Below, in pieces: positions 22,791 through 56,287 of a stretch of 64,000 nucleotides of DNA. The stretch covers positions 15,996,001 to 16,060,000 of the forward strand of contig CM097885.1 of assembly GCA_044892525.1 (NCBI GenBank), in the 5' to 3' direction. The stretch's first letter is position 1. Each line of letters starts with the position of its first letter. The stretch comes from Schmidtea polychroa (lineage: Eukaryota). Under the pieces are notes generated by a model. That model made no database searches. It had not been told where the DNA came from and was given only the letters and a program-made list of their open reading frames with translations. The position numbers were made by a program, and so were the translations under genes.

Positions 22791-22821
22791 GAATAAGCTT
22801 ATTTAATCATATGACTTATGT

Positions 22822-24559: not shown

Positions 24560-24560
<1 letters not shown>

Positions 24561-24621
<61 letters not shown>
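24561..24621. repeat. (ATT)n microsatellite
   Basis: About 20 consecutive TTA units. The equivalent position in block A1 is an N-gap. Confidence 0.95.
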
Positions 24622-24944
24622 GAGGAAGTTGAAAGATTCGTAAAGATTAATTAGAAATTTTGTTAAAATTTAAAATATATTTTTATTGAAAAATATTTTA
24701 AAAAGAACGAAATTTATAATTTTTAAAAAATATTTTTATCAAAGAATGTTTTAAGAAAAACTGAAATTTGTTTAAATAACAAAAATAAGATCAGGCAAGT
24801 TTTTGAGTATGTCATTTATTAAATAAAATTTATGGAATTATTTAGGGATTTGAAAACGGATGTTCACTAGCGCATTCACCATCATATCCACTAGTACACT
24901 CATTAGCACATTCTCTAGCACATCCACAATCACATCCACTAGCT

Positions 24945-27049: not shown

Positions 27050-27340
27050 TGATTCAACTATTCTGCGGCCATGCTTCTCATGCGCCGATAAGAATGCCAT
27101 CATTAACACCATGCAGGCTCAGATAGGATTGCTAAAAATGAAATCGGATCATCTAGAGGGAATCTACTTTTCTCCTGCGCAAATGAAGGAGGTACGATTA
27201 AACACTGCCGCGATGGTATGATCGAAGAGAGTCCCTCATTACGGCTATTAATCAAAGAACAATCAGAGGCCCTGCACAAGGTCTACGTGCAAGCGACTAT
27301 TACTAAGAAGATCGCTAATATACCGATAGCGGAGGAAGAT
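27050..27340 (+). pseudogene. Frameshifted homolog of the orphan ORF at 16455-17213
   Basis: LRPCFSCADKN...EGIYFSPAQMKE in one frame and IEES...SEALHKVY in the next. Confidence 0.7.
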
Positions 27341-27677
27341 TCGTGTAAGCAAATGCAACACGATATCATTTTTCATTGTAGATATCAATCCAATCAAACC
27401 AATTCAGAACCCACACAGAAGGAATTCGAAGAAACTCGACAGCAAATCAGAACAAACCAATCCAGAACCCGCACAAAGTGGAAAGGAACCAGGAACGCAA
27501 GGGATAAACAACGGATAATCGAATGGCGCTCAAATCCTCAAGTAATCAATACGATTTATTATTTTCAGTAGATCAATTGGAAAAACTCAAAAGATCAAGA
27601 TCAGTACGACATAAGAGAGAATAGCAACAGCAACAGCAAAAAGGGAAAATGGAGATAACCATAATCAAGAACCAAAA

Positions 27678-28068
27678 ATGAATCAATTCATACCAGGAGC
27701 GCACCAAATTTTCAAACAACCACAAGGACGACCAAATGAAAATAGTAGTGATCGTAACGGCCCGAATAAAGGGAACAGCTTCAACAGTAGGAGAAATATG
27801 AACGATAATAAACAATGCCGAACATGTGGGAAATCAGGACATTGGGATAGAGATTGTAATCGAAACGCGAACTGCAACAGGTGCGGGCAGAGAGGACACA
27901 CGGAAAGCATATGCCGAGCAAGAGGATGATATAAATTGCGGTCAATTGGGACACATCACGAGAGAATGTCGAGAAAGAAACCAACAACAACGACAACCTC
28001 AACCAACCAATAATTACGTACCAAATCCGCAACGACAACAAACAACCCAAGCGAGGGAAAACAAATGA
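27678..28068 (+). pseudogene. Retroelement Gag remnant with three CCHC zinc knuckles
   Basis: CRTCGKSGHWDRDC, CNRCGQRGHTESIC and (C)xNCGQLGHITREC with a frameshift; Gln/Asn-rich context. Confidence 0.7.
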
Positions 28069-28586
28069 ACGTCATGCAGGAAATCTCACAAATGAAGCAG
28101 ATGATGCAACAGTTAATGCGACCAAGCCAGAATCAAGCACCACAGCAGACACAGAATATATGCATGATGAGAAGCACAGAGAATATCAACAATTACCGGA
28201 TACAACAACATGCACAGGAATGGCAGAGATTACAAGCCGAGGAAGAGAGAATAAAACCAGAAGGCAACCAACAACGACAAGAACATTTAATATATTGAAA
28301 AATAAATAATAAAATTCCACTACTGGTCAATGTAGGCAAGGTGATTGCTCGCCATATATTCTCAGGAAATGGCCATACTTTGCATTCCGATGGACATGAA
28401 GGACATTTTGTATCAGGCTATTGCTGGAGGTAATATTTTATATGGATGACACGTGTCAGCTGCCTGAGAGCCGCTGGAATATCCTAGATGGTGACGAAAT
28501 TACTTTGATGGCCACTATTGATTATTCTGATGTCCTTAGCATAGAAAGGAACTTATTTACTCCTTCACTCACCAATGAGAATGAAT

Positions 28587-31500
28587 AATAATTTAACATT
28601 ATGCCATTGCCGCATCTAATGCTTTACTGATCCATCTCAGCCATGTAGAGGAGCCATTGAAAGCTTGGTCACACCGCGTGCCAATACTCATGCTCATTGC
28701 GGAAAATCCAGTCAAATCGCCTTCATTGCCCTCATAAACATTACACAAATGCACTCAGTCTGGGACACATTTCTCGCTATCCGTTCTGATTAAGCTTCCG
28801 TTTTGTACAGCTCCTTTCATGCATGCCATCCGATATGTCAGTGTAGGATCTTGTCTGTGTACAAGTTTCCACACCTTCAAATTGAGGATCTAGAAAGGAT
28901 AAAATCAAATTCCCTCAACTCATCATTAATTCATTTTCATACACAAGGTAACACCATAAGTAATATTTAGCTAAATATTCTATGCGAATGATTCTACCTT
29001 TCCTAATATTGACGTTTGTAGGCTACGGAATAAGTGATATGCAATTATATTTGTGTCATTGTTGATATAACCTGTAGCCCCCCATTCCCTCCATTTACCA
29101 TGTCAGTTAGTGTCAAATACTTTATTCTTTCATGGCATAAAATCCTTCATTCTATAAACAAATATTGAAGACTAAAATAAATAAGCGTTTCCAATGCTAC
29201 TGACGCCCTGTGATCTATTCCATCAACTTTTACACATTCCCTATTGTAGGAAGAACACTTGATAGAAACCCCTAATAAGTCACGTCACAATGTATCAATG
29301 CGTTCGATGACACAACAAAGAACAATGAAAGACCACGACTACTGTGGATTGGCATCAGAATGGTCCTGGCAATTGCTTTGGTGTCCATTAATTGGATTAT
29401 TTTAAAAAAATAAAAAACAAATATCTGATTTGTTGCTGAATCTGCTGTGACCGAATTCTGTGCCATTATTATGTACATCTATCAATACATACACCCTCCC
29501 GCACATCCACTAGCACATGCACCATCACATTCACTAGCACATGCACCATCACATCCACAATCACATGCACTAGGACAGTGAACTACAATACGATTCGATA
29601 GAATCAATTAAAATTGTCAATTAGGCCCTGCATTGATCACAGAATTCATAAATTACACAAAAATTCGTAACAATTTAATTTTTATTGTGTTAAATCTAAT
29701 CAATATCAGATCAATATGTGGCTCACAGGAACCTTGTACACATGAGAAAATGTTAGACAAATATTTGTAACCATAACGAGATCATTAGATCAATATTAAC
29801 ATTTTATGAAAAATATTTATTTTTATATTTTGATATATTTTTAATTTGTATTTGCCGTTAAAAATGTTAAATTTTTACATTTCGTTATAAAATTATAATT
29901 TAAATAATTTTGTAATATTTAAAATAAATGAGAAAAAAATTAGCATTAATAATATTTCGAATTGCTCTGAAGGCTAAAAAACAATATTTATAAAATGTTT
30001 GTTTATCTACATCAAAATACAAATTATAAATATTGAAATTGTCAACGTCAGAGGAAATAATTAATATAATAAGTATGATTTATGAATGTTGTAAAATGTT
30101 GAAATATTTTGATAATTTTGTTAATTTTAGATAAAATGTTTGCAAGCGTATGGGAAATGATGAAGAGGAATAAATTTGAATTTGATAATGAAGTCAGCAG
30201 TGAATTGATATGCAGAATTTGCAAATGTTTAATGATAAAAGCTTGCCATGCTCCTTGCGGTTGTCGCTTTTGTTCTGATTGCATTGAGCAATATTTGGAT
30301 GGAAAAGATAAATTCTGTCCAGGAGCATCAAAACATTGTGGAAAGAAAATGATCAATTTCAAAAAAGATGTTTCTGAAGATCACGCAGCCAATTTAAGGA
30401 TTTCAGAAGTGATAGTGAGATGTCCAATGCAAAATTGTCAATTCAAAGATGAATTAGAGGTGATGGAGAGCCACATGAGAACATGCAACAAGCAACCAAT
30501 GAAATGTCCATTCAATAGAATCGGATGCGAAATGAATGAGGTGGTAAAGGATGAAATGAAAGTCCATCTCAATGAGAACACTGAAGGCCATAGCAAATTA
30601 TTGATCGATCAGATCAGTAATCTATGCAATGAGATGCAAGCAATGAGACACGAGAATGTGACATTGCGTAATGAAATTATCAATATTAATGTAACATTTT
30701 ATTTGTAATTAATTTTATTGATATTTGTGATTGTAGGTGAAACTGGGCAATCTTGAAAGGAAAGAGGCGGAGAACAGAGGAGAAATAGAAGAATTAAATG
30801 AGGAAATGGTGGCATTGAAGAATGAGAATCGCTCATTGAGAATGGAGATGGAGACAAATATTGGATCAATCAATCAAGTTTGATTATTGATTTGATTTAC
30901 TATTGATTTTGTTATTGATGCAAAGCAGGTCAGACAGCAAATTGAAATGAATGAATCAAAATGTCAGCAGCAAATTGATGAGATGAAAGAGAAATGCGAG
31001 CAGCGGCTGCAACAGGGGAATGAAAAGGTGATTTATTGATTTATTAACGTGTTTGAATTTGAGATTCAGCTGCAGCTTGAAATGGCAAAATGCGCCAATG
31101 AAATTCGCCAGATTGAAACAAAATTAGCAAATGAAAAATATATAAATTATGGATTTTTTGAATGGCAAATCTATAAATTTTCACAACAAAAGAGATATGA
31201 AAAAATTTACAGCGAGGCATTTTATTCCGGGCCAATCGGTTACAAAATGTGCTTGAGGGTGAGCATTAGGGGTGATTATGTTTATGCTGGTTTCTGTTTG
31301 ATGCGTGGGGCAAATGATGAGCAATTGGATTGGCCGTTCAATCAATCCGTGACAATCGATGTGATCGATCCAGCAAATGGCAGCATTTATATGAGCAAGT
31401 CAATGAAATATTCAGATCGCCCTGATGCAGCCGGATGGGGGAAACCGTCACAAGACAGAAATAATTCAATTGGCTTTTATTATAATTATCCTGATACCAG

Positions 31501-32125
31501 CTCAATCTATCAATTAGCAGCCAAAAGTGATAAATTGCTGCTCAGGTGCAGAATTGAAAAATTATGACAAATTTAAAAAAACATTTCAATAAAGAATTTA
31601 TTTTGGGTTTTGATTTGTTTTATTGTTTGCATTTTTTATTATATTTTTATTATATTTATTATATGAGATAATTATTGTGGTAATTATTGTCATTCTCGCC
31701 TTCCATCCGATATCATCATCACGTGGCGGAGCGCTCACAGCAAATGCCAATTGCAATATCAACATCAATTATATAATTAAATAAAAGCAATTTAATTAAA
31801 TCAAAAACATTTAATATAAATTAATTTGAATAATTATTATAATTAAATTAATAATTAATTTGAAAGAAATGAAATTAAAATTCACCCGAATATAAGCGCT
31901 GACAAATCGCCTCAACAAATCAAACGCTCCTATGACGAGTGGAACTGACGAGAAAACCGCCGCTGATGTTATATGAGTTGTGGATAAATTATTGCTGTAC
32001 TGAATGGCAGTAAAATGCAGCTAATTGCAATACTAACACCGCGTTATATCAAATTGATAAATGCCTTAACATTTCGCCAGCTATTTGTGAGGCATTTAAA
32101 CGGAAATCAGCAACAACAATACTGA
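28587..32125. repeat. Segmental duplication block B, copy 2
   Basis: Colinear with 7596-11110. Confidence 0.9.
30136..31567 (+). CDS. TRAF-like protein copy 2, apparently intact (4 exons)
   Basis: RING, zinc finger, coiled coil and MATH. Three phase-0 GT-AG introns (GTAACA...TGTAG, GTTTGA...AGCAG, GTGATT...TTCAG). All exons are open when joined. Confidence 0.9.
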
Positions 32126-32233
32126 TCAAATGTTCTAAATTTGCTTTCACATCTGTTTTGATAAGTTTACCAAAATTAGAGCTGTCGATTCGATGAGGGC
32201 AATCAATGCTTTCTAAACTCTATAACATTCTGT

Positions 32234-32778
32234 TACGAATTCTTTTAATAATTAAACGAATTACCTTATTTAATCTTTCATAAAATTTAGATTTACTAAT
32301 AATATTATTGTTAATATAATAATAATAATAATTGCATTTGTAATGAAATCCTTTTCAATAGCTAGTGACCTGATTTAATATTAAATAATGTAACATTTCG
32401 TAAATTTATTCAGTTTTTCTTTCGTTAAATTTTCAAATACAATATTATTAAAACAAAAAAAGATTTCACGTAAATTAATATTTAAATTCACAAATTTGAT
32501 AAATTTTATGAATGAATTTTACTTATTAACAAACAACGAAATTTATTTTGAAATCTTGAAATTTTAGGAAATTTATAAATTAGGTTTTAAAGTGAAGTTG
32601 AGTCCAATACGTAATCTACATCAATACCTTGGGGTGATAAGTGACGGTTATGGGGTTTAAGGGGGGTCATTTAAATAATTTATAAATTATAATCTGAAAT
32701 TAAACGTAGTTGAGCATACATAATAAAGTAATTTACATTATTGAAGTTGGTACTTGAATGATGGTCAAATTACTTGAG
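32234..32778. repeat. Segmental duplication block C, copy 2
   Basis: Matches 20547-21240 and ends where a gypsy integrase remnant begins. Confidence 0.85.
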
Positions 32779-33700
32779 GAGGAACAAAGTAACATTCGAA
32801 CTAATACACAACAATTATATATGGCCTAACATGCGAAATGACATCAAAAACTACGTCAAGAGAGTTCTCAGCTGCCAGTTAAACAAAACAACAAAAAAAC
32901 TCAAACCTCAAAAAGTAAACTTCCCAAGCAGCAAAGTCTTCGAAACAATGCACACAGATATGGTAGGACCACTACCACCAAACGACAACTACAAATACCT
33001 GCTGACAATTATAGACAGGAAATCCAACTGGTTCGAAGTAATCTCAATAAAAGAAATCACCGCAAAAAATAAATGTGAAATGGTCGAATTAAATTGAATA
33101 GCTCGTTATGGTCAACCGAAAACAATTATAACCGATCAAGGCAGACAGTTCGAATCAGAAATGTTCAAAATACTCTGCAACAAATACAACATCAAAAGGA
33201 ACCGAACAACAGCTAACAACCCACAATCAAACGGAAAAAAGAGCGGTTCCACAGACATTAAAAGAAAGCATATGAACAAAAGCCAATGATCAAAATTGGT
33301 TAAATAATCTACTAATCGGACTGAAAAATAGTCCAAACTCAATAGATAATGAAAGTCCAGCAGTCAAGGTGTTCGGAAAAGCAACAAATTTACCATTACT
33401 CAAAAACAAAACAGCAGATAACACAGAAACAAACAAACAAACAACTAACAATAACAAAGGAAAAACAGATAAAAAACACAAAAGGAATTTTAAAAAGGAG
33501 ACCGGACTCCGAATTGGATGGGAAAACAGTACTAACAACATATTTTTATTTCATCATAATAAAGAAACCATTCACAAAAGGTTTCGAATCTAAATACGAA
33601 GGTCCATTCAAACTCTTAGAAATTAACAAAAACATCGCTACAATAATCAAAAAAACAACAAAATGAAAATAAACATATGACGAATAAAACCCTATCCCCT
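32779..33700 (+). pseudogene. Ty3/gypsy integrase remnant
   Basis: YIWPNMRNDIKNYVK..SCQLNK, HTDMVGPLP, LLTIIDRKSNW, IITDQGRQFES, TTANNPQSNG and KYEGPF (GPY/F) motifs; frameshifted. Confidence 0.85.
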
Positions 33701-34989: not shown

Positions 34990-36154
34990 AAATGGGTTCA
35001 AAGTTTACCACAAAAGTGGGAGGAAACGGAGAAAGTCCTTTCGGCTTCGTTTGATGATGGCTTTATTGTTGTTAAGGCTTCAAATAATTTTTCAAGTTTT
35101 CAGGCCTTTGAACTGTTTTCTTAAATATCATAAAGTCATCGTTGATGTTTAAGTTGGATTTTTGAAAATTTCCGCAAGTAACATAATTAATTGCAGTATC
35201 AAGCTCTGCTTCCAACGAAACTGGTGCATCCGTGTTCAAATCTACATGTTTTGGTGAAGATGAAGGTGACATGATGAAGAAGATTCAAAAAGTCTAGCAA
35301 ACAGATTAGATGCAAATTCCAAAACAATTTTTGATGGTTTTATAGAGTTATTGGTGAGGCATGCCAGAGTATCAATAATGGTAGAGTTTTCTCGTTCTTT
35401 CATCCGTCGTTCGATATTTAATTTTAATGTACTACAGATCACGTCATTACATTCATTCAATTTGTTGTACAGAAAATTCATCGCTCCTTTTGCTGTTAAT
35501 AAATTGGCGTCTTGTCTCCCCAATGTTTCAACAGCTAATGTTAATGGTTTTATTGCATTCATTAAGCTGCACAATTTTTCGAAATCTATTCCAGATACTA
35601 GGTGAAGTGCATTTAATTCGATCAGCGTGTTTTGAATTGGAATTCGAACTCTGAGTAGTTTTTCTAACATAGGATGAATAGAGTTCCACCTGTGTTTCAG
35701 ATTTTTTTGTATGTCGACATCTTCATTATCTGCGAATTCTTCTTCATTAACATCATCATCGAAAAATTCATTGTCTTGGAAGTCGTCATCATCTTCTTCT
35801 TCTATAATGTCAACATCATTTGATTCAAAAACTTTCTTTTAATAAAATGTTTCAATTACCGCCAAATGCAGCCCTTGACATAAACATAACTGTGATTCAG
35901 ATGGACAATCTGAACCATACTTCACCATTACCCTGGCACCATCATTTGTAGTATAAACAATGTCGTTTTGGAACGAAAAATTAAACAACTCTAAATGCTT
36001 GGTTACAATTTCAAACACTACAGCTGCAGTACACGAACCAGTAGCTCTCACCAAACCTAGATTGTTGCAATTTCCATTATTTCCATGTTCATTAATATTA
36101 ATAATGCGACGATTTCGTGCACTTACCCACTCATCAAGGGTTATACTAAACTTA
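34990..36154 (-). pseudogene. hAT transposase, catalytic and dimerization part
   Basis: FSITLDEWVSARNRR, TNDGARVMVKYG, CLCQGLHLAV and IKPSSNEAERTFS motifs with frameshifts. Confidence 0.88.
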
Positions 36155-36214
36155 AGTAGTAGGATGTGTCCCCTCCAGACCAGGTCCCCTCATTTATTTT
36201 TCAAAATATTATTT

Positions 36215-36245
<31 letters not shown>

Positions 36246-37851
36246 CATTTATTTTTTTTCAAGGTCATTTATTTTTTCAAGGTCATTTATTTTTTCAAGG
36301 TCATTAATTTTTTTCAAGGTCATTTATTTTTTCAAGGTCATTTATTTTTTCAAGGTCATTTATTTTTTCAAGGTCATATTTTAAAATTTAAATGTACAGA
36401 GTTCCCGACAACGATAATTATTCAACGATAGCTCATTTTAAAGCCCAATGCAAGACCTTTCGATTGATTCATAGAAGGTATCATCATCATTATTATTGAC
36501 AAAGTTATTAACAATTGATGACCACCATCTTTTCAACGTTAAATTATTATTATTATTCAAAATATTATTAATTGGCCGGGCGGTGACATACTTTTTCTCA
36601 TCCCAAAAATTAATGTTCCCACCAACGGATTTTATTAGACGATACCTCATGTTAAAGCCCAATGCAAGACCTTTCGAATGAGCTAATGAAGGTATCATCA
36701 TCATTATTATTGACAAAGTTATTAACATTTTACCAAAAATCATTTTCAAGGTCATATAATTATTAAGTGGTCTGGCGGGCCCCTACTCTTTTTCATCCCA
36801 AAAATTAATGTTCCCATTATCCGAATTTATTGGACGATACCTCATCTTAAAGCTCAGTCCAAGACCTTTCGAATGAGTCATAGAAGGTATCATCATCATT
36901 AATATTAACAAAGAGAATGACTCACCCAATGACTCACCCAACGATGTCTAATATTTTTAGAACGATGACTCATCAAGGTCATTCCCAAGGTCATATGACT
37001 CATCAAGGTCAAGGTCATTTTTTTTTAATTTAATTTTTTTGTTTTAATTAAGTAATCTTTTTATTTTCAAGGTCATTTAATTTTCAAGGTCATTTAATTT
37101 TCAAGGTCATTTAATTTTTCAAGGTCATTTAATTTTCAAGGTCATTTACTTTTCAAGGTCATTTACTTTTCAAGGTCATTTATTAAAATAATTATTATTT
37201 TCTNNNNNNNNNNNNNNNNNNNNNNNNNNNNNNNNNNNNNNNNNNNNNNNNNNNNNNNNNNNNNNNNNNNNNNNNNNNNNNNNNNNNNNNNNNNNNNNNN
37301 NNNNNNNNNNNNNNNNNNNNNNNNNNNNNNNNNNNNNNNNNNNATCTATCCGACAAGATATTCTGTCTCCCTAAGGGTATTGCTCACAAGGGCACTACTC
37401 ACATGGGTAATTGTCACAAGGGTACTACTCACATTCAACATGTCGTAAATTATTTTCAAATACAAGTTCAAAGTATTATTATTTATTTTAACACGCACGG
37501 GAGTTATTATTATTATTATCATATATAGTCAGAGTTTATCCGACAAGATATTCTGCCCCCCTATGTGTACTGCTTACATAGGTAATGGTTACAAGGGTAC
37601 TTCTCACATTCAACATGTCTCAAAGGGTATAATATAATTATTATTAAATTCCGACCAACTTAAATCAATGAAGGGGTAGAACAAAATATATTACGTTGCG
37701 GTATTTTAAAATTTAAATATATTTTAAAAACGTATTTTGATACTAAAGTTTACTTAATTAACAAAGACATAATTATTGCACATGCTTTGCATAAATATTA
37801 TTATTTTTTAAATTTTCAATATTTTCTTTTAAAGTATTAACACGCGCGGGA

Positions 37852-37901
<50 letters not shown>

Positions 37902-38161
37902 CATTATTAGTGAAAACCTAAAATATTTTTTTACACACACACACACACAACCCCTCAACCATTATTATTATTATCAATATTAAAAACCTAAAATATTTTC
38001 TACACACATGCACAACTCATTAACCATTATTATTATCATTATTAGTGAAAACCTAAAATATGGTTTACACACACACACACACACGACCCATTAACAATTA
38101 TTTGTATCAATATTAGTGAAAACCTAAAATATCTTCTACACACATATACAACCCATTAAAC

Positions 38162-38203
<42 letters not shown>

Positions 38204-38582
38204 GCAAATATTAGTCAAAAACATAAAAACACACACTCAACCAATTAACAATTATTATTATCAATATTATTATTATTGCAAATACTAGTCAAAAACTTAA
38301 AATTTTATTTTTTTTTTTACACACACACACAACCCATTAACCATTATTATTATTGCAAATATTAGTCAAAAACATAAAAACACTCATAAACCATTATTAT
38401 TATCAATATTCGTGAAAACCTCAAATATTTTCTACACACACACACACACACACAACCCATTAACCATTATTATTATTGCAAATATTAGTCAAAAACATAA
38501 AAACACTCATAAACCATTATTATTATCAATATTAGTGAAAACCTAAAATATTTTCTACACACACACACACAACCCATTAAAC

Positions 38583-38639
<57 letters not shown>

Positions 38640-40243
38640 ATTATTATTATTATTAGTGAAAAAACCTTAAATAATTTTTACATACTAAGTTATGGGGTAG
38701 AGTATTATTATGTTTGCAGTATTCTGTGTTTGCCTTTACAGGAAGTTGTCAATAAGGAGCGATAATTTTACACACACATTCTATATACACATACCTTGTT
38801 TAACATGGGTGTATATACTCCTAGTCTATCCGACAAAATATTCTGTCCCCCTATGGGTATTGCTCACAAAGGTACTACTCACATTCAACATGTCGCAAGG
38901 GTATATTAATTAGGGTTAGTAAATAAAACCTATCACATACACTATTTAAACGAAAAAAAAATCAAGACAAGAGAGGACAAGGCAAAGTATATGCATTTAG
39001 TATTGCCAGGCCTAATGAGCAGTTACCAAATATCTGTGCCTGAAAGACACGGTGGATATTTGTTCGCGTCCACAAGGGTCGTCTGTGCCTCCCGCAAGTG
39101 GGGTCAAAAGAACCTGGGCATTATAGTTTTCCGTACGGAACATTACGCCTAGCATGGGTAGTCAACTACCAGTACATTCGAAACGTATAATTTCAAAATA
39201 CATGCGTCATTGGCACTATAACCAAATTAATTAATGTTTTCACTAACACAAATATATATTTACAGAGGCCTCCCACTAGTTGGATTACAACCGCCCACCA
39301 CGACGATCAGCTTGTAAATATATATTAATTAAGGGATAAAGAGGACCCACCCAACCCTATTATATTTAATTTACAAATTTTTCTCGCTCTTCTGCTGGTA
39401 TTCTATCTCAAAATTATCATCTCCATCGGGCCATTTGGAATACATCTTGCGAATTGTACATATTTCTTAGTTTCTGATGTGGTGTCAACTATCATTGCTA
39501 AAATTTATATTGATTTAAAAGCAATTAACTTACATTATCTAGCATTTTATCGTCACAGGCTTGATAAATTAGGCAACTGTTATTTGTGGTATACTTTTTC
39601 AATGTCATTTCCCACCATAAAACACAGTTACCTAAATATAATATATATATATTTTAAAGAATTAATTCATGTCTTACATTAATAATAATATTCTTCAGGT
39701 AGTACTTTACAATATCTAATTGCTAAAACATTGGTTTTTCCCATTTTTCTTGACATTCGTTGAAAGTTTACATAATTTAAGTCTGATAATTCATGTTGAA
39801 GGACACCCACAATCAGCTAATTCATTTAAGAAATCCGGAACTATAACTCCTTTAGTGTTTCACCATTTTGTCTGGTTCATTTTTTTTTCTATAATTCATG
39901 TTTTAATAAGAAATTTCTAAATCCAGAACATAAGTCATTTAGTGTTTCACCATTTTGTTCATCTTCTTCATAATCATATAATTCATTTTCTTCATTACTA
40001 AGTAAAATAATTAAAATATTGTAGTAAATTCTTTATTTACTTACTTTATGGATACTAAAACGAAAGAAATAAAGTTATATCAAAAGTATATTTAAATAAA
40101 TTAAATTTAAATAATTTAATTTAGTTATTTAAAAATATTTAAACAATTTAGTTATTTAAGCATATTTAAACATTAATATTATTATATAGTATAATTTTAT
40201 ATAATTTTATATAATATTATAATTTTATGTACACTTATATATC
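36155..40243 (+). repeat. Left inverted arm (TIR), about 4.1 kb
   Basis: Reverse complement of 42737-47140. Mirrored ORFs in the ORF track (e.g. 39479/43288, 39720/43050, 38710/44058). Inner boundary at GTACACTTATATATC. Confidence 0.9.
36214..37190 (+). promoter_or_regulatory. Arrays of TCAAGGTCA and TGACTCA motifs in the left arm (mirrored at about 45650-46640)
   Basis: About a dozen AGGTCA half-sites at 36214-36380, further copies at 36975-37185, and TGACTCA at about 36918-37005. Function is inferred only. Confidence 0.4.
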
Positions 40244-42736
40244 CTTCATTTAATTTTTTAAATTCAAATTTATAATGAAGATTCTTTGAATTAAAAAATA
40301 TTATGTTAGTATTTCCAGGCAGTAAACAACGAATTCAATAATTAAAATCTTAATTTTCATGTTGTTAGGGTTATGGCCAGAATTTAATCGCCATCTAATC
40401 GTTTGTTCTCAATTTCGCTCATTTTTGTTCAAAACATTCAGGTGAGTTGTTATCTGGAAAGTTTCTTTGAGCTCAGTTTTGTTAAAACACTCACAGTATT
40501 TTTGAGGGACGTGATACTGGGAATAAATTAACAATGGGTGGTCTTGCATACATGTTGTTGGTTTGAACTGTTGATTTATTTTAGAAATATGTATATTAAA
40601 AACATTTAAGGTATCATTCAGTAAAATAATATAGTATTTTTGAGTATTTTTAGTTGATTTATAAATAACAGTATTTTGATATATCGATAAAGACCATATA
40701 CTCCTAGTTTATCCGACAAAATATTCTGTCACCCTATGGGTATTGCTAGCAAGGGTACTGGTCACATTCAACATGTCGCAAGGCTATATTAATCATTTAG
40801 AAATTCTTAGGTAATTTAGTGAGATGATCAGAAATTCGTGAATATTTTAAATGTAACTTTACACTTATGTCGAGCGACTAATTTATTGGTTAACTTTGTA
40901 GTCATTTAAAGCAAAAATTAATTTATTCATCTAATGTTCGTTACAATAGTTAATAATATGAGAAAAACATGGTCATTATTCATTGATAATTTTAAATTCT
41001 TAATCATTTGGAGTAAATTTGTTTGAGGCAAAAATAATTAAAGGAGTCATAATAGAAATATGGTTATCATTTATCCAATTAAGGGGCCTATTATTTAGAA
41101 ATATATATTATAAAGTAACAATTATTTTCTAATTTAATTAGATGATCATTAGACGTAATATATCTTTGCGAGAAATTTAAGATGTTTGAGTAACCAAAAC
41201 ATGGACATTTTGTGCGATAAATTTATGAATATTGCGTAATTTTGTTATTTTTAGTCATTTAAAATAATATTTAGCAAAGGTAATTTAGCAAAATATCATT
41301 TATCCACCCGATAACAATATTCCTTCAATAGATTAACTGATATTCAACCTATTTAATTTCTGGAAATATAATTAAAATCATAAATTTCCTTCATGAAAGT
41401 TAAATTTTCTTTAGTTGTCGATGTCTAACTCTTTTAAGTCAATATTTTTGTTACCGTTATCTTCATAATGAATGTCCGTCTTTAAAATGTTAAATAAAAT
41501 AATTTAAAGCAATAACCTTTGATATCAATTATCTCTAAATATTTCAAATATTGCATTGTCAAAACCAAGTAAATTAGTCATTACCCATTAATAAAACCGT
41601 GGATAATTAATAAAAACTGGTTCTGAAACATAAATTACTGTGCAATAACATTCATCACAACCTCTAAAACGATATAATTTCACAGGAACTATTCATAGCT
41701 GACTATTTCCCTTGAAAATTTGATATTTTACCAATAAGAATATATAAATATTCAAAACATTAACCGATCCCTCACCAAATATCTTTACCCCTTAAAACAC
41801 CTTAAATCGTATATATTACCATCTTAACCTTCACTAAATCCAACCGAATATAATTTCATCCACTTGTGCCCTTTAATAAATCTTAAAATCTATAGAAAAT
41901 TCTTCAAAATATGAATTTTATTTAATTGTCACAGACATTCTTCCATTGAAATAATTTAGTAGCTAAATTCAAAGAGTCCACTAAAAGATCAAAATTCATT
42001 AAAATAAATATTTAACCACATGTGTCATCAAATACCTAACTAGAGATGATAATATCTCATTGATTGATCATAATTATAACCATTATAACATGATATATCT
42101 TTCAAACTAAATTTAGGTATATTTTACAATAATTTTCAAGTAGATTTTAAATATATCATCATCGTGAAAAAATTAGATTGTTTCAACTTTAGATTTTCAA
42201 TATTTTAAAGTTCATCAATGTGTAAATATTCTTAGAAAAATATATGAAAAAATTATTTAGTCAAATTATCATTACAAAGTCATCATCATCATCAAAATTA
42301 ATAAAATATAGCAAATTATCAAGAAATTAATTAAATTTATCTTAGAATTAACACTAAACCTTAAATATTCTTTCAATTAACATGAAATTCACAAAAAAAA
42401 AAATGTTAGTAAAATCCCGCTAACTCTAAAAAATTACCAATGAATTTAATGCCAAATAATAACCAAATATTTGCCTAAATAAAATCATTAAAACACACCA
42501 GTACCTTTACGACCAGTACCCTTACGACCAGTACCCTTACGACCAATACCCTTACAAGCAGTACCCATAGAGGGAGAAAATATTTTGTCGGATAAACTCC
42601 GAGTATATATATAATAAAACGAATTAACAATAACTCCATCAAATTGAATCAGTCAAATTATCACAAATTTTAATAAAAAATCTTATTCTAAAGTGGTAAG
42701 CAGCGTAAAATCGAAAGATAATTTTAATAACACAGA

Positions 42737-44331
42737 GATATATAAGTGTACATAAAATTATAATATTATATAAAATTATACTATATAATAATATTAATGT
42801 TTAAATATGCTTAAATAACTAAATTGTTTAAATATTTTTAAATAACTAAATTAAATTATTTAAATTTAATTTATTTAAATATACTTTTGATATAACTTTA
42901 TTTCTTTCGTTTTAGTATCCATAAAGTAAGTAAATAAAGAATTTACTACAATATTTTAATTATTTTACTTAGTAATGAAGAAAATGAATTATATGATTAT
43001 GAAGAAGATGAACAAAATGGTGAAACACTAAATGACTTATGTTCTGGATTTAGAAATTTCTTATTAAAACATGAATTATAGAAAAAAAAATGAACCAGAC
43101 AAAATGGTGAAACACTAAAGGAGTTATAGTTCCGGATTTCTTAAATGAATTAGCTGATTGTGGGTGTCCTTCAACATGAATTATCAGACTTAAATTATGT
43201 AAACTTTCAACGAATGTCAAGAAAAATGGGAAAAACCAATGTTTTAGCAATTAGATATTGTAAAGTACTACCTGAAGAATATTATTATTAATGTAAGACA
43301 TGAATTAATTCTTTAAAATATATATATATTATATTTAGGTATCTGTGTTTTATGGTGGGAAATGACATTGAAAAAGTATACCACAAATAACAGTTGCCTA
43401 ATTTATCAAGCCTGTGACGATAAAATGCTAGATAATGTAAGTTAATTGCTTTTAAATCAATATAAATTTTAGCAATGATAGTTGACACCACATCAGAAAC
43501 TAAGAAATATGTACAATTCGCAAGATGTATTCCAAATGGCCCGATGGAGATGATAATTTTGAGATAGAATACCAGCAGAAGAGCGAGAAAAATTTGTAAA
43601 TTAAATATAATAGGGTTGGGTGGGTCCTCTTTATCCCTTAATTAATATATATTTACAAGCTGATCGTCGTGGTGGGCGGTTGTAATCCAACTAGTGGGAG
43701 GCCTCTGTAAATATATATTTGTGTTAGTGAAAACATTAATTAATTTGGTTATAGTGCCAATGACGCATGTATTTTGAAATTATACGTTTCGAATGTACTG
43801 GTAGTTGACTACCCATGCTAGGCGTAATGTTCCGTACGGAAAACTATAATGCCCAGGTTCTTTTGACCCCACTTGGGGGAGGCACAGACGACCCTTGTGG
43901 ACGCGAACAAATATCCACCGTGTCTTTCAGGCACAGATATTTGGTCACTGCTCATTAGGCCTGGCAATACTAAATACATATACTTTGCCTTGTCCTCTCT
44001 TGTCTTGATTTTTTTTTTCGTTTAAATAGTGTATGTGATAGGTTTTATTTACTAACCCTAATTAATATACCCTTGCGACATGTTGAATGTGAGTAGTACC
44101 TTTGTGAGCAATACCCATAGGGGGACAGAATATTTTGTCGGATAGACTAGGAGTATATACACCCATGTTAAACAAGGTATGTGTATATAGAATGTGTGTG
44201 TAAAATTATCGCTCCTTATTGACAACTTCCTGTAAAGGCAAACACAGAATACTGCAAACATAATAATACTCTACCCCATAACTTAGTATGTAAAAATTAT
44301 TTAAGGTTTTATCACTAATAATAATAATAAT

Positions 44332-44394
<63 letters not shown>

Positions 44395-44650
44395 GTTTAA
44401 TGGGTTGTGTGTGTGTGTGTAGAAAATATTTTAGGTTTTCACTAATATTGATAATAATAATGGTTTATGAGTGTTTTTATGTTTTTGACTAATATTTGCA
44501 ATAATAATAATGGTTAATGGGTTGTGTGTGTGTGTAAAAAAAAAAATAAAATTTTAAGTTTTTGACTAGTATTTGCAATAATAATAATATTGATAATAAT
44601 AATTGTTAATTGGTTGAGTGTGTGTTTTTATGTTTTTGACTAATATTTGC

Positions 44651-44698
<48 letters not shown>

Positions 44699-44954
44699 GT
44701 TTAATGGGTTGTATATGTGTGTAGAAGATATTTTAGGTTTTCACTAATATTGATACAAATAATTGTTAATGGGTCGTGTGTGTGTGTGTGTAAACCATAT
44801 TTAAGGTTTTCACTAATAATGATAATAATAATGGTTAATGAGTTGTGCATGTGTGTAGAAAATATTTTAGGTTTTTAATATTGATAATAATAATAATGGT
44901 TGAGGGGTTGTGTGTGTGTGTGTAAAAAAATATTTTAGGTTTTCACTAATAATG

Positions 44955-45010
<56 letters not shown>

Positions 45011-45535
45011 TCCCGCGCGTGTTAATACTTTAAAAGAAAATATTGAAAATTTAAAAAATAATAATATTTATGCAAAGCATGTGCAATAATTATGTCTTTG
45101 TTAATTAAGTAAACTTTAGTATCAAAATACGTTTTTAAAATATATTTAAATTTTAAAATACCGCAACGTAATATATTTTGTTCTACCCCTTCATTGATTT
45201 AAGTTGGTCGGAATTTAATAATAATTATATTATACCCTTTGAGACATGTTGAATGTGAGAAGTACCCTTGTAACCATTACCTATGTAAGCAGTACACATA
45301 GGGGGGCAGAATATCTTGTCGGATAAACTCTGACTATATATGATAATAATAATAATAACTCCCGTGCGTGTTAAAATAAATAATAATACTTTGAACTTGT
45401 ATTTGAAAATAATTTACGACATGTTGAATGTGAGTAGTACCCTTGTGACAATTACCCATGTGAGTAGTGCCCTTGTGAGCAATACCCTTAGGGAGACAGA
45501 ATATCTTGTCGGATAGATTAAGAGTATATATATTG

Positions 45536-45604
<69 letters not shown>

Positions 45605-46580
45605 CTTAGAAACTAAAAACTTAGAAAATAATAATTATTTTAATAAATGACCTTGAAAAGTAAATGACCTTGAAAAGTAAATGACCTTGAAAATTAAATG
45701 ACCTTGAAAAATTAAATGACCTTGAAAATTAAATGACCTTGAAAATTAAATGACCTTGAAAATAAAAAGATTACTTAATTAAAACAAAAAAATTAAATTA
45801 AAAAAAAATGACCTTGACCTTGATGAGTCATATGACCTTGGGAATGACCTTGATGAGTCATCGTTCTAAAAATATTAGACATCGTTGGGTGAGTCATTGG
45901 GTGAGTCATTCTCTTTGTTAATATTAATGATGATGATACCTTCTATGACTCATTCGAAAGGTCTTGGACTGAGCTTTAAGATGAGGTATCGTCCAATAAA
46001 TTCGGATAATGGGAACATTAATTTTTGGGATGAAAAAGAGTAGGGGCCCGCCAGACCACTTAATAATTATATGACCTTGAAAATGATTTTTGGTAAAATG
46101 TTAATAACTTTGTCAATAATAATGATGATGATACCTTCATTAGCTCATTCGAAAGGTCTTGCATTGGGCTTTAAAATGAGGTATCGTCTAATAAAATCCG
46201 TTGGTGGGAACATTAATTTTTGGGATGAGAAAAAGTATGTCACCGCCCGGCCAATTAATAATATTTTGAATAATAATAATAATTTAACGTTGAAAAGATG
46301 GTGGTCATCAATTGTTAATAACTTTGTCAATAATAATGATGATGATACCTTCTATGAATCAATCGAAAGGTCTTGCATTGGGCTTTAAAATGAGCTATCG
46401 TTGAATAATTATCGTTGTCGGGAACTCTGTACATTTAAATTTTAAAATATGACCTTGAAAAAATAAATGACCTTGAAAAAATAAATGACCTTGAAAAAAT
46501 AAATGACCTTGAAAAAAATTAATGACCTTGAAAAAATAAATGACCTTGAAAAAATAAATGACCTTGAAAAAAAATAAATG

Positions 46581-46611
<31 letters not shown>

Positions 46612-47140
46612 AAATAATATTTTGAAAAATAAATGACCTTGAAAAATGGTCTCGGTAAAACTTTAATAACTTTGCCGATGTTAATGATGATGATACATTC
46701 TATGGCTCAATTGAAAGGTCTTAGACTACGCTTCAAAATAAGCTATCGATTAATAAATTCGGATAATGGGAACATTAATTTTTGGGATGAGAAAAAGTAT
46801 GTCCCCGCCCGGCCAATTAATAATATTTTGAATAATAATAATAATTTAACGTTGAAAAGATGGTGGTCATCAATTGTTAATAACTTTGTCAATATTAATG
46901 ATGATGATACCTTCTATGGATCAATCGAAAGGTCTTGGACTGAGCTTTAAGATGAGGTATCGTCCAATAAAATCCGTTGGTGGGAACATTAATTTTTGGG
47001 ATGAAAAAAAGTGTGTCCCCTCCAGGCCAATTAATTAAAACAAAAAATTAAAAAAAAAAATTTTTTTTTTTCCCCGGGGGGGGGAGGGGGTATATGTGGT
47101 CTGGAGGGGACCTGGTCTGGAGGGGACACATCCTACTACT
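42737..47140 (-). repeat. Right inverted arm (TIR), about 4.4 kb
   Basis: Reverse complement of the left arm plus an extra block of about 470 bp at about 46636-47105. Confidence 0.9.
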
Positions 47141-47600
47141 AACTTACCATATCATTCTAAATTGTTGTTAATTTTTTTATTCCCTCTTGTTTTCTATTTC
47201 GAATTCAGTATCAGTTATATCCTCTGTCTACAATAGATTGTCTGATAAACTTGAAATTTGTAATTGCACGAATTGTTATTCCGTTTTCAGCCGCTAATCT
47301 TGAAACAATCTCACTTAAACTTTGCCGTTTAACAAAATCCATCATCGTATTTCCTTTGATTTTCTTGAAGTTTTGCTCTTGCTCACCCAAAACGGATTCA
47401 TCATTATCCCGTTTACAATAGATTTGTGTACCATTTTCAGATGGTTTAGCATACCACCCGTGTTTCCATTACTATTTGAAATAAAAACTATTTACTTTAA
47501 AAACTGAACTTTGGCAAATTTTTTATTGGTAGAAGGAATTTTTAAAAATATTCCCAAACAGGAGCTGATGGTGCCATGGGCTAAATAGTAGTACAATATA
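47141..47600 (-). pseudogene. hAT transposase N-terminal part (BED-finger end and following helices)
   Basis: GNTGGMLNHLKMVH and SEIVSRLAAENGITIRAITNFKFIRQSI; joins in frame to FSITLDEW when the insertion is removed. Confidence 0.85.
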
Positions 47601-48850
47601 AATTTAATACAAGTTTTACGGTAAAAAATAAATTAATCATAATTACCTGTGATTATTTTCAATTCTTTGATTTGAGAGCTTTTAACAATTTCGCAATAAC
47701 TAATTATATCGATTTTTCATTCTATTTAAAATTTTATTCTATACATAATTTAAAATAATTTTCACTATCCGGTAATCGCGAGTGTATTTGAGCGGATACC
47801 GAATACGGATTTTTGTCTGCAAATTCGCGGATATCGGATACGGATTATCCGAACTGTCAAACTCTAAATATAGGCTATATATTACACGTATAGAATACAA
47901 TATCACCGAAATAACACACATAGAATATAATACACCGAAACCTCCAGCTATAATATAATAACTGGTATAATAATAGCTATAATAGGGATGATCATTGCCG
48001 TGGTCGTTGCCAACGGTAGACAACCCAAATCCACTAGGTATTCATCATCATCTACTTGCCTACCATGGACCATTATCAGGTATATACCTGTAGTTTTATC
48101 GGTAGCAATCACATCTCTCCTCAATATTCTGACTTTGATATAACAGTTAAAAATCATTGTTAATGGTTCTTTTCCAACCATTCGCACGTCCAGATTAATG
48201 TTGCCTTGATTGTTAGGCTGACTTCGGATTGTTTTCCCATTTCTCCTCATCAACGCTTCGATTTGCGTCTGAAATGGGCTTGTTTCTTTTACCACTGGTA
48301 GTATAATTGGAATTATTGCTACCAACAAATCTACTGGTATTCGTAATACTAACATCCAGTCTAGTATTTCTTTTATGGTTTCTCCGTCTCATGGAGAATT
48401 TTGTAATTCTAACCCTTGTCGTTGGGATAATTGTTGAGTTTCCTCCAATCTCTCAATTTCCATCTAAGTAATTAAGAATATACTGTCTTGATACATTACC
48501 GCCACTGGCTTCGGTGCTGTCTTTGTTGTGAGCTTCGTCACTCTACCGAGGAGTATCCCGTTCTGTAGAAGTGTTTGGTTTGCTTCTAGTTTTATTCCAC
48601 ATAAGTACAAGTCATATCATTGATGCTTAATACTTGTCAATGTCTCTGTTAATTTATCTGCTCGACATCTTGCATTTATATCGAGAATATACTCTTTATC
48701 CTGAGGGAGTTTTATATTGAGCTAAGCATCTTGGAGATCTCACTCATTCTCCATGATTTCTTCTAATATCCTTAGGATTTTATATGTGTCGTTATGATGC
48801 ATTGGGTCATCTTCAATCTGCGATATCAGCTTCACTAATGTATCAATGAA

Positions 48851-51260
48851 AAATATTTATTTTGATATATTTTTAATTTGTATTTGTCGTTAAAAATGTT
48901 AAAATTTTACATTTCTGTATCAAATTGTAATTTAAATAATTTTGTAATATTTAAAATAAATAAGAAAAAAATTAGCATTAATAATATTTTGAATTGCTCT
49001 AAAAGCTAAAGAACAATATTTATAAAATGTTTGTTTCTCTACTTCAAAATACAAATTATAAATATTGAAATTGTAAACGTCAGAGGAAATAATTAATATA
49101 ATAAGTATGATTATTGAAATGTTGTAAAATGTTGAAATATTTTGATAATTTTGTTAATTTTAGAGTTAATTTTATAGTTTGTTAATTTTATAGTTAAATG
49201 TTGGCAAGCGTATGGGAAATGATGAAGAGGAAAGAATTTGAATTTGATAATGAAATCAGCAGTGAATTGATATGCAGAATTTGCAAATGTTTAATGATAA
49301 AAGCTTGCCATGCTCCTTGCGTTTGTGGCTTTTGTTCTGATTGCATTGAAAATTATTTGGATGGAAAAGATAAATTCTGTCCAGGAGCAGCAAAACATTG
49401 TAGAAAGAAAATGATCAATTTCAATAAAGATGTTTCTGAAGATCATGCAGCTAATTTAAGGATTTCAGAAGTGGTAGTGAGATTCCCAATGCAAAATTGT
49501 CAATTTAAAGATGAATTAGAGGTGATGGAGAGCCACATGAGAACATGCAACAAGCAACCAATAAAATGTTTATTCAATAGAATCGGATGCGAAATGAATG
49601 AGGTGGTAAAGGATGAAATGAAAGTCCATCTCATTGAGAACACTGAAGGCCATAGCAAATTATTGATTGATCAGATCAGTAATTTGTGCAATGAGATGCA
49701 AGCAATGAGAGACGAGAATGTGACATTGTGTAATGAAATTATCAATATCAATGTAAAATTGTATTTGCAATTAATTTTATTGATATTTAGGATTGGAGGT
49801 GAAATTGTGCAATATTGAAAAGAAAGAGACTGAAAACAGAGAAGATATAGAAGAATTGAATGAGGAAATGGTGGCATTGAAGAATGAGAACCGCTCATTG
49901 AGAATGGATATGGAGACAAATATTGGATCAATCAATCAGGTTTGATTATTGATTTGATTTGATATTGATATGTTATTGATGGAAAGCAGGTCAGACAGCA
50001 AATTGAAGTGATTGAATCAAAATGTCAGCAGCAAATTGATGAGATGAAAGAGAAATGCGAGCAGCGGCTGCAACAGGTGAATGAAAAGGTGATTTATTGA
50101 TTTATTGAAATGTTTGAATTTGAGATTCAGTTGCAGCTTGAAATGGCGAAATGTGCCAATGAAATTCGGCGGAATGAAACAAAATGTCAACAGCAAATTG
50201 ATGAGATGAAAGAGAAATACGAGCAGCGGTTGCAACAGGCGAATGAAAAGGTGATTTATTGACATATTTGAATTTGAGATTCAGTTGCAGCTTGAAATGG
50301 CGAAATGTACCTATGAAATTCGGCAGATTGAAACAAAATTAGCAAATGAAAAATATGTAAATTACGGATTTTTTGAATGGGAAATCGATAAATTTTCACA
50401 ACAAAAGAGAAGTAAAAATATTTACAACAAAAGCGTTTTTTTCGGGACTAATCGGTTACAAAATTTGCTTGTGGGTGCTGATTGATGGTAATTGGGGTAT
50501 TGAGGCTGGTTTCTGTTTGGTGCGTGGGGCAAATGATGAGCAATTGGATTGGCCGTTCAATCAATCCGTGACAATCGATGTGATCGATCCAGCAAATGGC
50601 AACATTTATATGAGGAAGTCAATGAAATATTCAGATAGCCCTCTTGATGCAGCTGGATGGAGGAAACCTTCACACGACAGAAATAATTCAATTGGTATTT
50701 ATTATTATCCTGATGCCAGCTCAATCTATAAATTAGCAGCCAAAAGTAATAAATTGCTGCTCAGGAGCAGAATTGAAAAATTATGACAAATTTAAAAAAA
50801 CATTTATATAAAAAATTGATTTATTTTGGGTTTTGATTTGTTTTATTATTTGCCTTTTTATTATAGCAAATTGCCGATTGCAATATCAATAATATTGCAA
50901 AATCAAAAATATTTAATATAAATAATTATTTTAATTAAATTAATAATTAATTTGAAATTAAATTTAAATTCACCCGATTATAAGCGCTGACAAATCGCCT
51001 CAACAAATCAAACGCTCCTATGACGAGTGAAACCGACGAGAAAACCGCCGCTGATGTTATATGAGTTTTGGAGAAATTATTGTTGCATTGAATGGCAATA
51101 AAATGCACTTAAATGCAATACTAAAACTGTTATATCAAATTGATAAATGCCTTAACATTTCACTAGCTATTTCTGAGGCATTTAAACGGAAATCCGCAAC
51201 AGCAATGCTGACAAAATGTTCGAAAATTGCTTTCACATCTGTTTGGGTAGTAATTGTATT
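48851..51260. repeat. Segmental duplication block B, copy 3 (partial)
   Basis: Colinear with about 8660-11110 and 29813-32160. Confidence 0.88.
49198..50786 (+). pseudogene. TRAF-like protein copy 3, frameshifted in the MATH domain
   Basis: Same exon layout. An extra A at about 50428-50432 splits MATH into ORFs 50285-50485 and 50373-50786. Zinc-finger Cys is changed to Phe (RFPMQNC). The frameshift could be a homopolymer sequencing error. Confidence 0.8.
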
Positions 51261-51277
51261 TGTACTGAGATCCTTTT

Positions 51278-51475
51278 TAAGTGCTAGTGACCTGATTTAA
51301 TATTAAATAATGTAACATTTCATAAATTTATTCACTTTTTCATTCGCTAAATTTTCAAATTAAAACAAAAAAAGATTTCATGTAAATTAATATTTAAATT
51401 CACAAATTTTGATACATTTTATGAATGAATTTTACTTATTAACAAACAACGAAATTTATCTTGAAATCTTGAAAA
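51278..51475. repeat. Segmental duplication block C, copy 3 (partial)
   Basis: Matches GCTAGTGACCTGATTTAAT...CTTGAAATCTTGAAA in blocks C1 and C2. Confidence 0.8.
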
Positions 51476-55546: not shown

Positions 55547-56003
55547 TAATTAATATAATATGTTTGATGGGCCTGCATTGAATGTATAAAGTTGCCAGCA
55601 ATGCTTATATTTTGAACGACGATAATTTAAACAAAAAGAAAATCCCATAAATTTAAAGATATATTTATGACATGTTAAAAGCTTTAGTTAATTTAAATAT
55701 AAAATTATTTCAATCAATTGTTACAGTCGGAATTCGGTTCAACAATATCAAAAAGAATAAAGTGCAGACGGTACAAACGCGTGTCACTATCTTATCATTT
55801 TACGCCTTTATTGACACTCCTGGCTAAGGAATTTATATTTGGGAAAAAGATGAAAGTATGAAACTATTTCTATTTTGGGACAGAATTTAGGAACCAAGTT
55901 GGTTTTAATATAATAATTATCCAGCAAAGGTGAAATAAAAGAACCTAGACAATTATAGGCAATGCGTGACGTTAAACAAACAACAAATTAAAAATATTTA
56001 CCA

Positions 56004-56287
56004 TTTCAAAGACATTGGTTATTTCGAAATACAATTCATCATTTCTACTATCCTTTTCTTCGGTAATGGAGATCTCTTCAAACTGACCATCAAGGTCCAG
56101 CAATTCCTGAGGGGGTGCAGCATAATTCGGTACATCATCTGTCATAATAGAAAACGATTCAATTAATAAAAATATATTTACCTATTTATATAGCATAGTT
56201 GTAGTGGACTATTTCTGGCATTGTGACAAATTCAATGTTGAAATTCAATTCTTTGAGTTCCAATTTTAATAGATCCTGGGGGATAAA
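56004..56287. repeat. Third partial copy of block A (matches about 3079-3362 and 24258-24540)
   Basis: TTTCAAAGACATTGGT...CCTGGGGATAA is shared; it runs into an N-gap. Confidence 0.85.

Follow-up and report, generated by a model that had tools for sequence, protein, structure and literature searches.

How does a stretch of DNA without a single intact gene come to lie between two copies of a target site, with each of its ends opening into about 4 kb of near-perfect mirror image? The question is raised by an 11-kb element in the genome of Schmidtea polychroa, found in a window of 64,000 nucleotides (assembly GCA_044892525.1, contig CM097885.1, positions 15,996,001 to 16,060,000, forward strand); "the window" below means this whole stretch, and all coordinates count from its first letter. 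Its ends, its target site duplication, its arms, the absence of intact genes and the interrupted host sequence are direct observations. Here, we propose with a probability of about 0.6 that the element is a non-autonomous derivative of a Polinton/Maverick, i.e., a relative whose arms grew by inverted duplication and which was integrated by a helper.

Ends, insertion site and arms

The element starts with AGTAGT at 36155 and finishes with ACTACT at 47140, the outermost 35 bp being a perfect inverted copy of each other (36155-36189 and 47106-47140), and it is bordered on both sides by AACTTA. Among flank lengths of 2 to 11, a direct repeat exists only for length 6, and when all 11 AGTAGT sites of the window were paired with all 8 ACTACT sites, only this pair carried a 6-bp direct repeat; the chance of this 6-mer at a given place is 7e-4 from base composition. 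Such ends fall under the Maverick end definition, (AGT)2//(ACT)2 or (AG)3//(CT)3, of which 5'-(AGT)2//(ACT)2-3' is described as the commonest motif, with a 6-bp target duplication as typical (PMC8097293). Terminal inverted repeats (TIRs) are present as well, but their 4.1 to 4.4 kb exceed the 100 to 1500 bp given as usual for Polintons (PMC10748475) and are about three times the longest TIR reported for 134 intact vertebrate Mavericks (range 46-1447 bp; PMC8097293). The terminal 24-mer has no match in prokaryotic genomes, as expected. A first-pass annotation of the window had given the same ends, a 6-bp duplication, arms of about 4.1 and 4.4 kb and a 2.5-kb spacer, all of which hold; its statement that more than three quarters of the element is self-complementary is slightly generous, the arms covering 77% of the element and the bases aligned in pairs amounting to 69%.

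The insertion site is one hAT-like pseudogene split by the element, with the duplication of 6 bp. Its two flanks read as successive pieces of a single hAT-like gene, with orientation and order both preserved (Table 1). We take the pieces in the right flank to be a BED finger and N-terminal hAT motifs, for which Pfam gave no match. The flanks are unrelated to each other in inverted orientation (left flank against the reverse complement of the right, score 27; 50 shuffles, mean 24.8, maximum 34), and the inverted match between the arms stops at the element ends with no extension beyond them. Unmirrored flanks, mirroring that stops at the element ends and repeat counts that differ between the arms argue together against an amplification chimera.

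Over 3812 aligned bases the two arms differ by seven substitutions (0.18%), by six small indels (1-10 bp) of microsatellite or slippage type and by one of 10 bp near the inner end; one additional 123-bp minisatellite unit occurs in the left arm only (38319-38441). The right arm is longer by a sub-terminal stretch of 469 bp, which the left arm probably lost by a deletion with 2-nt microhomology (TC), the direction of the event being our reading. From the end inward, an arm consists of the terminal 35 bp, ~200-bp repeats, TCAAGGTCA arrays, TATA-led modules, micro- and minisatellites, a GC-richer stretch, a decayed gene and 200 bp of AT-rich DNA (GC 10-11%) beside the inner junction. The ~200-bp repeat is found in three to five copies per arm (77-89% identity), two of them within the 469 bp of the right arm, and the ~90-bp TATA-led module is present three times in each arm and twice in the spacer (74-92% identity). 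Tandem repeat makes up only ~27% of the right arm, and arm length is therefore more than mere repeat expansion. The 9-mer TCAAGGTCA occurs in 47 overlapping copies within the element and nowhere else in the window; its arrays could be an enhancer array or a binding array for replication proteins. Presumably this 9-mer is the monomer site of NR5A/ERR nuclear receptors. The first-pass annotation included neither these arrays nor the segment resembling signal recognition particle (SRP) RNA described below.

Table 1 Coordinates of the element, its parts and its insertion site (positions within the window)
Feature	Position	Strand	Remarks
Left flank: middle and C-terminal part of hAT/ZBED1-like transposase pseudogene	35236..36154	-	Atlas score 0.95, 193 shared features
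Left target site duplication, AACTTA	36149..36154	+	exact 6 bp
Whole element	36155..47140	.	10,986 bp; GC 27% vs 32% in remaining window
Left arm	36155..40243	+	4089 bp, with 140-N gap
Terminal 35 bp	36155..36189	+	begins AGTAGT; perfect inverted copy at right end
6-, 17- and 18-bp unit arrays based on TCAAGGTCA	36215..37182	+	surround three ~200-bp repeats (36401-36913); mirrored 45644-46647
Module copies M1 and M2	37344..37620	+	~90 bp, TATA-led; mirrored ~45243-45530
ATT microsatellites and 65-136-bp minisatellites	37853..38655	+	mirrored 44316-45009
Module copy M3	38813..38910	+	mirrored 44061-44158
Mirror copy of Alu-domain-like 44-mer	39268..39311	-	identical
Unique spacer	40244..42736	.	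2493 bp
99-codon stop-free frame	40409..40708	-	relatives not found (PHROGs, NCBIfam and Atlas among searches)
Module copy M4, in spacer	40696..40793	+	92% identity to M3
AT-rich spacer core, possibly heavily decayed coding sequence	40800..42480	-	one diverged public copy of part (P0003)
Module copy M5, in spacer	42515..42608	-	inverted relative to M4, 85% over 68 bp
Right arm	42737..47140	-	4404 bp, more complete copy
Possible decayed intron-bearing gene, kind not assigned	42973..43630	+	mirrored ~39340-39997; three GTAAG donors, stops in every frame; weak
Match to metazoan SRP RNA 5' (Alu) domain	43659..43702	+	44 nt; 13/14 model pairs kept
Candidate ~350-nt RNA (predicted)	43659..44018	+	Alu-like 5' end, GC-richer body, closing stem, T run; folds no better than shuffles
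Stretch exclusive to right arm	46637..47105	-	469 bp, directly behind common terminal 35 bp
Sub-terminal stem-loop	47012..47130	-	three copies of short terminal motif; z -5.1, 0/200 shuffles as stable
Right target site duplication, AACTTA	47141..47146	+	exact 6 bp
Right flank: N-terminal part of same hAT-like pseudogene	47141..47700	-	BED-finger-like pieces; no Pfam match

Coding capacity and relatives of the element

No intact gene was found, in agreement with the first-pass annotation. The longest stop-free frames in unique sequence have 117 and 99 codons, the former on the minus strand over the candidate gene of both arms, and allowing short GT-AG introns yields at most 116 amino acids, which is within the shuffle range (8 tests; 1 to 13 of 25 shuffles reached the observed length). 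Translation with genetic code 6 gave no protein-like frame. A ciliate-type code was considered, the arm frames looking open if TAA/TAG are read as Gln, and was set aside: the window's host genes (TRAF-like, BEL/Pao, DUSP12-like) have open frames under the standard code, and they are animal-like, with TRAF RING and MATH domains, a BEL/Pao gag (DUF1759) and a dual-specificity phosphatase. The candidate arm gene has three GTAAG donors (a number reached by 31 of 1000 shuffles) and, under a strict pattern that was chosen post hoc, two donor-acceptor pairs (2 of 1000); a word-based protein search gave no relative among 66 candidates.

The searches for Polinton gene remnants used single frames with X at stops, against general profiles rather than Polinton-specific, frameshift-aware ones. 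None of 12 element frames matched Pfam under E 0.03, the best (E 0.034) being of low complexity; PHROGs returned something for one of eight queries (best E 0.041) and NCBIfam for one of seven (E 0.052), in neither case a Polinton gene. A PDB search with two of the three minus frames of the spacer and a tblastn search of phage genomes with one frame gave no Polinton gene match either, and a word search of long proteins, with one minus frame and hence limited sensitivity, kept none of 352 candidates. A protein-primed PolB is thus represented by no intact frame and no match; the same is true of the retroviral-like integrase, ATPase, protease and capsid genes in Pfam, PHROGs and NCBIfam. That the spacer is a decayed protein-primed polymerase had been suggested by eye, and no profile or protein search supported it, nor did any search support the stretch CYNGYNYD near 42085, which resembles what we take to be a B-family exonuclease motif. 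One phmmer search against 1.84 billion proteins, again of limited sensitivity with its one minus frame, gave a single match, P0003, an unnamed protein of 70 residues, 57 of them identical to the spacer frame, with a 5-residue gap. Most probably an erroneous gene prediction in a diverged copy of this DNA, it means that the spacer sequence is not unique and says nothing on function.

Two further ideas about the spacer were examined. The modules M4 and M5 form an inverted pair (40696-42608), each with a TATA before it, which encloses 1.7 kb, and this pair could be the remnant of a nested TA-flanked transposon instead of promoter-like modules. M4 shares 92% identity with M3 and 85% with M5, and each arm has three further copies without a partner, so we prefer an intrinsic module and regard the nested transposon as a possible alternative. 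The spacer core as an older palindrome was rejected, its halves aligning at 108 against a shuffle mean of 105 and maximum of 137.

Which known elements come closest? An autonomous Polinton is excluded by the lack of core genes, and the element resembles a non-autonomous one. The vertebrate Mavericks of Barreat and Katzourakis (2021, PMC8097293) have ends, perfect 6-bp duplications and TIRs as found here, and 96% of their genomic copies are described as decayed. The intact ones measure 12.7-24.6 kb and carry seven or eight intronless genes, whereas the present element has 11.0 kb and no gene between and within its arms; its 4-kb arms are an outlier for animals. Endogenous Polinton-like viruses of cryptophytes share the 6-bp duplications, and some carry non-coding RNA genes (PMC12220804). 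Among the gene-bearing protist viruses in four rows of Table S3 of that work, the longest inverted repeats measure 4435 bp in C. borealis and 7179 bp in R. lacustris. They differ from our element in a median repeat of ~350 bp, in having all been selected for capsid genes and, in those four rows, in inserts of at least 6.4 kb (PMC12220804). Given gene-bearing viruses with repeats of that length, long arms alone are no mark of a defective genome.

In Repbase names such as Polinton-1N1_DR, the N stands for non-autonomous. A zebrafish Polinton-2N1_DR of ~11 kb, near-palindromic with TIRs of ~5 kb, was reportedly described by Kapitonov and Jurka in 2006. Such N-type Polintons are like our element in being gene-less, with Polinton ends and mobilised in trans, and they differ in the host lineage, zebrafish (DR). 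The name Polinton-1N1_DR appears in PMC9341505. Galileo two-TIR copies and Foldback-like elements are likewise non-autonomous, consisting nearly entirely of long, internally repetitive TIRs built from tandem units and recruited internal sequence; they differ in belonging to the P-element superfamily, in a 7-bp duplication, in TIRs up to ~1.26 kb and in a total of 1.7-2.2 kb (PMC3573991). The same source also mentions that inverted repeats of Polintons have expanded, citing Jurka et al. 2007. Together, arm extension by recombination in Galileo and the cited expansion in Polintons lower the novelty of the present case. The literature searched, which covered few subscription papers, contained no direct description of a palindromic Polinton, and the element seems to be an extreme, long-armed case of a known kind. 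In Schmidtea mediterranea, Polintons have been annotated and are reported to be repressed by PIWI-interacting RNAs (piRNAs) of SMEDWI-2 (PMC8532177).

Origin of the palindrome and competing explanations

The end motif and the 6-bp duplication agree exactly with Mavericks, which favors the Polinton reading; the label itself, drawn from ends, target duplication and size, is putative. Of the Polinton-like identity claimed by the first-pass annotation, the commonest Maverick end motif and the duplication stand, and no gene remnant has been added to them by the profile and protein searches. Its reading of the element as a defective, satellite-like Polinton, with arms extended by template switching and a helper for integration, is supported in part. 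Polinton ancestry, a helper and mobility as a palindrome are what we infer. The element would have kept its cis signals at both ends (AGT-repeat termini and sub-terminal repeat arrays) while all genes were lost or decayed; about 4 kb beside one end, with its repeats, decayed gene and SRP-like segment, would then have been copied in inverted orientation onto the other end, displacing most of the interior. The protein-primed polymerase and integrase of a helper Polinton would have copied the product and inserted it into the hAT pseudogene with the 6-bp duplication. Since the element has no coding capacity, the integration machinery would have to be supplied in trans.

The arms are young or homogenised. 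They differ by 0.18%, the internal repeats are old (74-92%) and the frame is broken alike in both arms, so that decay preceded the last copying of the arms. By the time the arms arose or were last made equal, the sequence had long since decayed, and the insertion was not far off in time. For their growth, we put template switching in strand-displacement replication slightly ahead of chromosomal repair, with the two not far from even, because single-stranded panhandle intermediates would also hold the arms equal. A nascent strand could slip at the inner junctions with their 10-11% GC, and these junctions are sharp and AT-rich, compatible with polymerase switching of the copy-back type but no proof of it. 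Both template switching and arm-to-arm repair explain the arms and the AT-rich junctions, and a single copy cannot separate them. Maverick end repeats are thought to serve jumping-back initiation in protein-primed replication (PMC8097293). In animals, direct support for the panhandle, protein-primed model of Polinton replication is scarce, and a gene-less family with equal arms and a decaying interior would leave a testable footprint, i.e., common inner junctions and arm-to-arm correction. Planarian Polintons being piRNA targets, a 4-kb inverted repeat could also yield double-stranded RNA directed against the helper; otherwise the element is a well-preserved, unusually long-armed transposon remnant.

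Several observations weigh against this explanation. There is a single copy within the window, and its left end has no partner of the sub-terminal stem-loop; without this and the sub-terminal repeats of the 469 bp, this copy may no longer be a substrate. Intron-like signals in the arm gene do not fit the core genes of Mavericks, which are described as intronless (PMC8097293). None of the searches in Pfam, PHROGs, NCBIfam, PDB and phage genomes, nor the two word-based searches and the phmmer search, found a Polinton gene remnant, and the spacer core has no coding signal in a frameshift-tolerant score (z -0.5; hAT control, z 8.0). P0003 need not mark a second insertion, as a nested element or an orthologous locus could have given rise to it. 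Please note also that the left end is connected to the remainder only across an assembly gap.

The strongest of the rivals, though unlikely, is that a Polinton relic with ordinary arms integrated first and that its arms were lengthened in place by break repair, one arm templating the other, so that the palindrome never moved. One recent event of this type accounts for the 0.18% divergence, and there is a precedent in Galileo, whose non-autonomous copies recruit internal sequence into their TIRs, a process that has been given a repair model and is cited for Polintons too, and whose TIRs vary by ~210-bp tandem units, compared with the ~200-bp units here (PMC3573991). Galileo extensions, however, amount to hundreds of base pairs (longest TIR ~1.26 kb; PMC3573991), against 3 kb in the present case, and the perfect terminal 35 bp and the perfect duplication suggest an insertion as young as the arms in spite of a very decayed interior, for which insertion of an already gene-less element is easier.

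Could the palindrome be a product of assembly? In such a mosaic the ends and the duplication would be real, and either the interior or only the innermost 2.9 kb of the left arm would have been built from other family copies or by fold-back of a contig end. The inner left arm does begin exactly at a scaffold gap (37343/37344), where near-identical read pairs of the right arm could have created the link, and the window contains six gaps and one gap-adjacent 749-bp duplicate (99.9%). Yet both inner junctions and the entire spacer lie in gap-free sequence; the gap of 140 N (37204-37343) agrees in size with the 104-bp ATT microsatellite that is its counterpart in the right arm; substitutions, microsatellite lengths, the 123-bp unit and the 469 bp differ between the arms, which is not expected of a pasted consensus or an amplification chimera; and the mirror symmetry ends precisely at the element ends. 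We consider a mosaic improbable. Least probable is a cut-and-paste transposon from another superfamily, non-autonomous and of foldback type, whose Polinton-like ends would be coincidental: long, internally repetitive, gene-less arms are the foldback pattern, TIR length is said to classify poorly (PMC3573991) and the searches returned no Polinton protein, but Galileo duplications have 7 bp (PMC3573991) against 6 bp here and no transposase match in Pfam, IS3EU and GingerRoot have 6 bp with TA..TA or TG..CA ends in place of the AG..CT found here, Ginger has 4-5 bp (PMC10045372), and the doubled AGT triplet with 6 bp is the Maverick signature (PMC8097293).

The SRP-like segment and other features of the window

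In each arm, the same 44 nt match the 5' (Alu) domain of metazoan SRP RNA (RF00017; 29.6 bits; E 1.4e-4 for the element and 7.7e-4 for the window), the match starting at model position 1; beyond it and a microRNA precursor (below), the Rfam scan of the window gave nothing under E 0.4. The two hairpins, the UGU(NR) turn and the closing helix of the domain are all present. As counted from the alignment, 33 of 44 positions equal the Rfam consensus and 11 differ. None of the eight helix differences disrupts a pair: in three pairs both bases have changed, in two only one. Thirteen of 14 pairs are standard, and the 14th is G-G, as in the consensus. Three differences lie in loops; two of them make up a matched change in a presumed loop-loop pair, and the third breaks another such pair. 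Pairing alone is weak evidence for an Alu fold, 13 of 14 pairs being reached by 32 of 1500 local shuffles. A full-length SRP RNA is not indicated: 29.6 bits lie far below the family cut-off of 70, neither S domain nor 3' end was recognised, the 3' part scanned separately gave no SRP match, and folding is unremarkable (z -0.7 and -0.8 for the whole region, 0.3 for the 49-mer alone). An SRP origin of the 44 nt is likely all the same, and a role for the element is unlikely.

With the Alu domain fixed, the next 15 nt (43707-43721) are predicted to pair with 43970-43988 (probabilities 0.3-0.9), and a run of ten T (44009-44018) follows ~20 nt past this closing stem; by this model the layout resembles a polymerase III RNA of ~350 nt. 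The 46-nt SRP/Alu 5' domain SA46 is reported to suffice alone to bind SRP9/14 (10.1101/2024.12.16.628748). The matched 44 nt span the same 5' domain; they differ from the consensus at a quarter of their positions and have no recognised S domain. No Polinton with an SRP-like RNA was reported in the literature searched, and SRP RNA is not among the RNA classes listed for the cryptophyte Polinton-like viruses in PMC12220804. If expressed, an Alu-domain-like RNA would be a new kind of cargo. For Repbase N-type Polintons, we know of no SRP-like RNA.

A bolder reading, quite unlikely, would make the element a member of a long-lived, multi-copy, protein-less satellite lineage of a planarian Polinton, replicated and perhaps packaged with the helper, which carries the gene of an SRP-Alu-mimic polymerase III RNA of ~350 nt twice, along with its enhancer-like arrays of the nuclear-receptor-type 9-mer. 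If it were true, the RNA would be a decoy binding SRP9/14 or the ribosome, a counterpart of adenovirus VA RNA, and the element would represent a defective-interfering genome that arose naturally from an animal polintovirus and whose payload is non-coding.

Elsewhere in the window, a mir-753 precursor (Rfam) lies at 61394-61455 on the plus strand (81 bits; cut-off 62). We take mir-753 to be a planarian family, which the literature search did not confirm; a weak 77% match of 61426-61520 to 25233-25316 suggests that the hairpin may lie in a repeat. An open frame of 1395 codons (56918-61105, +) joins a DUSP12-like phosphatase, two ubiquitin units and a BEL/Pao gag-protease, and may be a retroelement with captured host complementary DNAs or a mis-join. 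The 749-bp direct duplicate (56830-57578 and 62383-63131), each copy of which adjoins an N gap, probably results from overlap in the assembly or forms both ends of one retroelement. Three copies of a TRAF-like gene (RING, zinc finger, MATH), 88-93% identical, lie at 8555-11114, 29711-32158 and 48846-51244, each with an internal duplication of ~170 bp and all within a larger segmental repeat that includes 20811-21244, 32351-32782 and 51273-51474. A dispersed repeat of ~2 kb occurs at 1562-3815 and 22810-24862 (95% identity), with a third, partial copy at 55993-56287, and an AT-rich stretch at 12286-12801 shows overlapping direct and inverted self-similarity (66-76%). Fragments that by eye look like a Gypsy-type gag, protease and integrase and a reverse transcriptase of the type without long terminal repeats (non-LTR) lie at 11210-12272 (-), 21716-22276 (-), 26471-28309 (+) and 32762-33666 (+).

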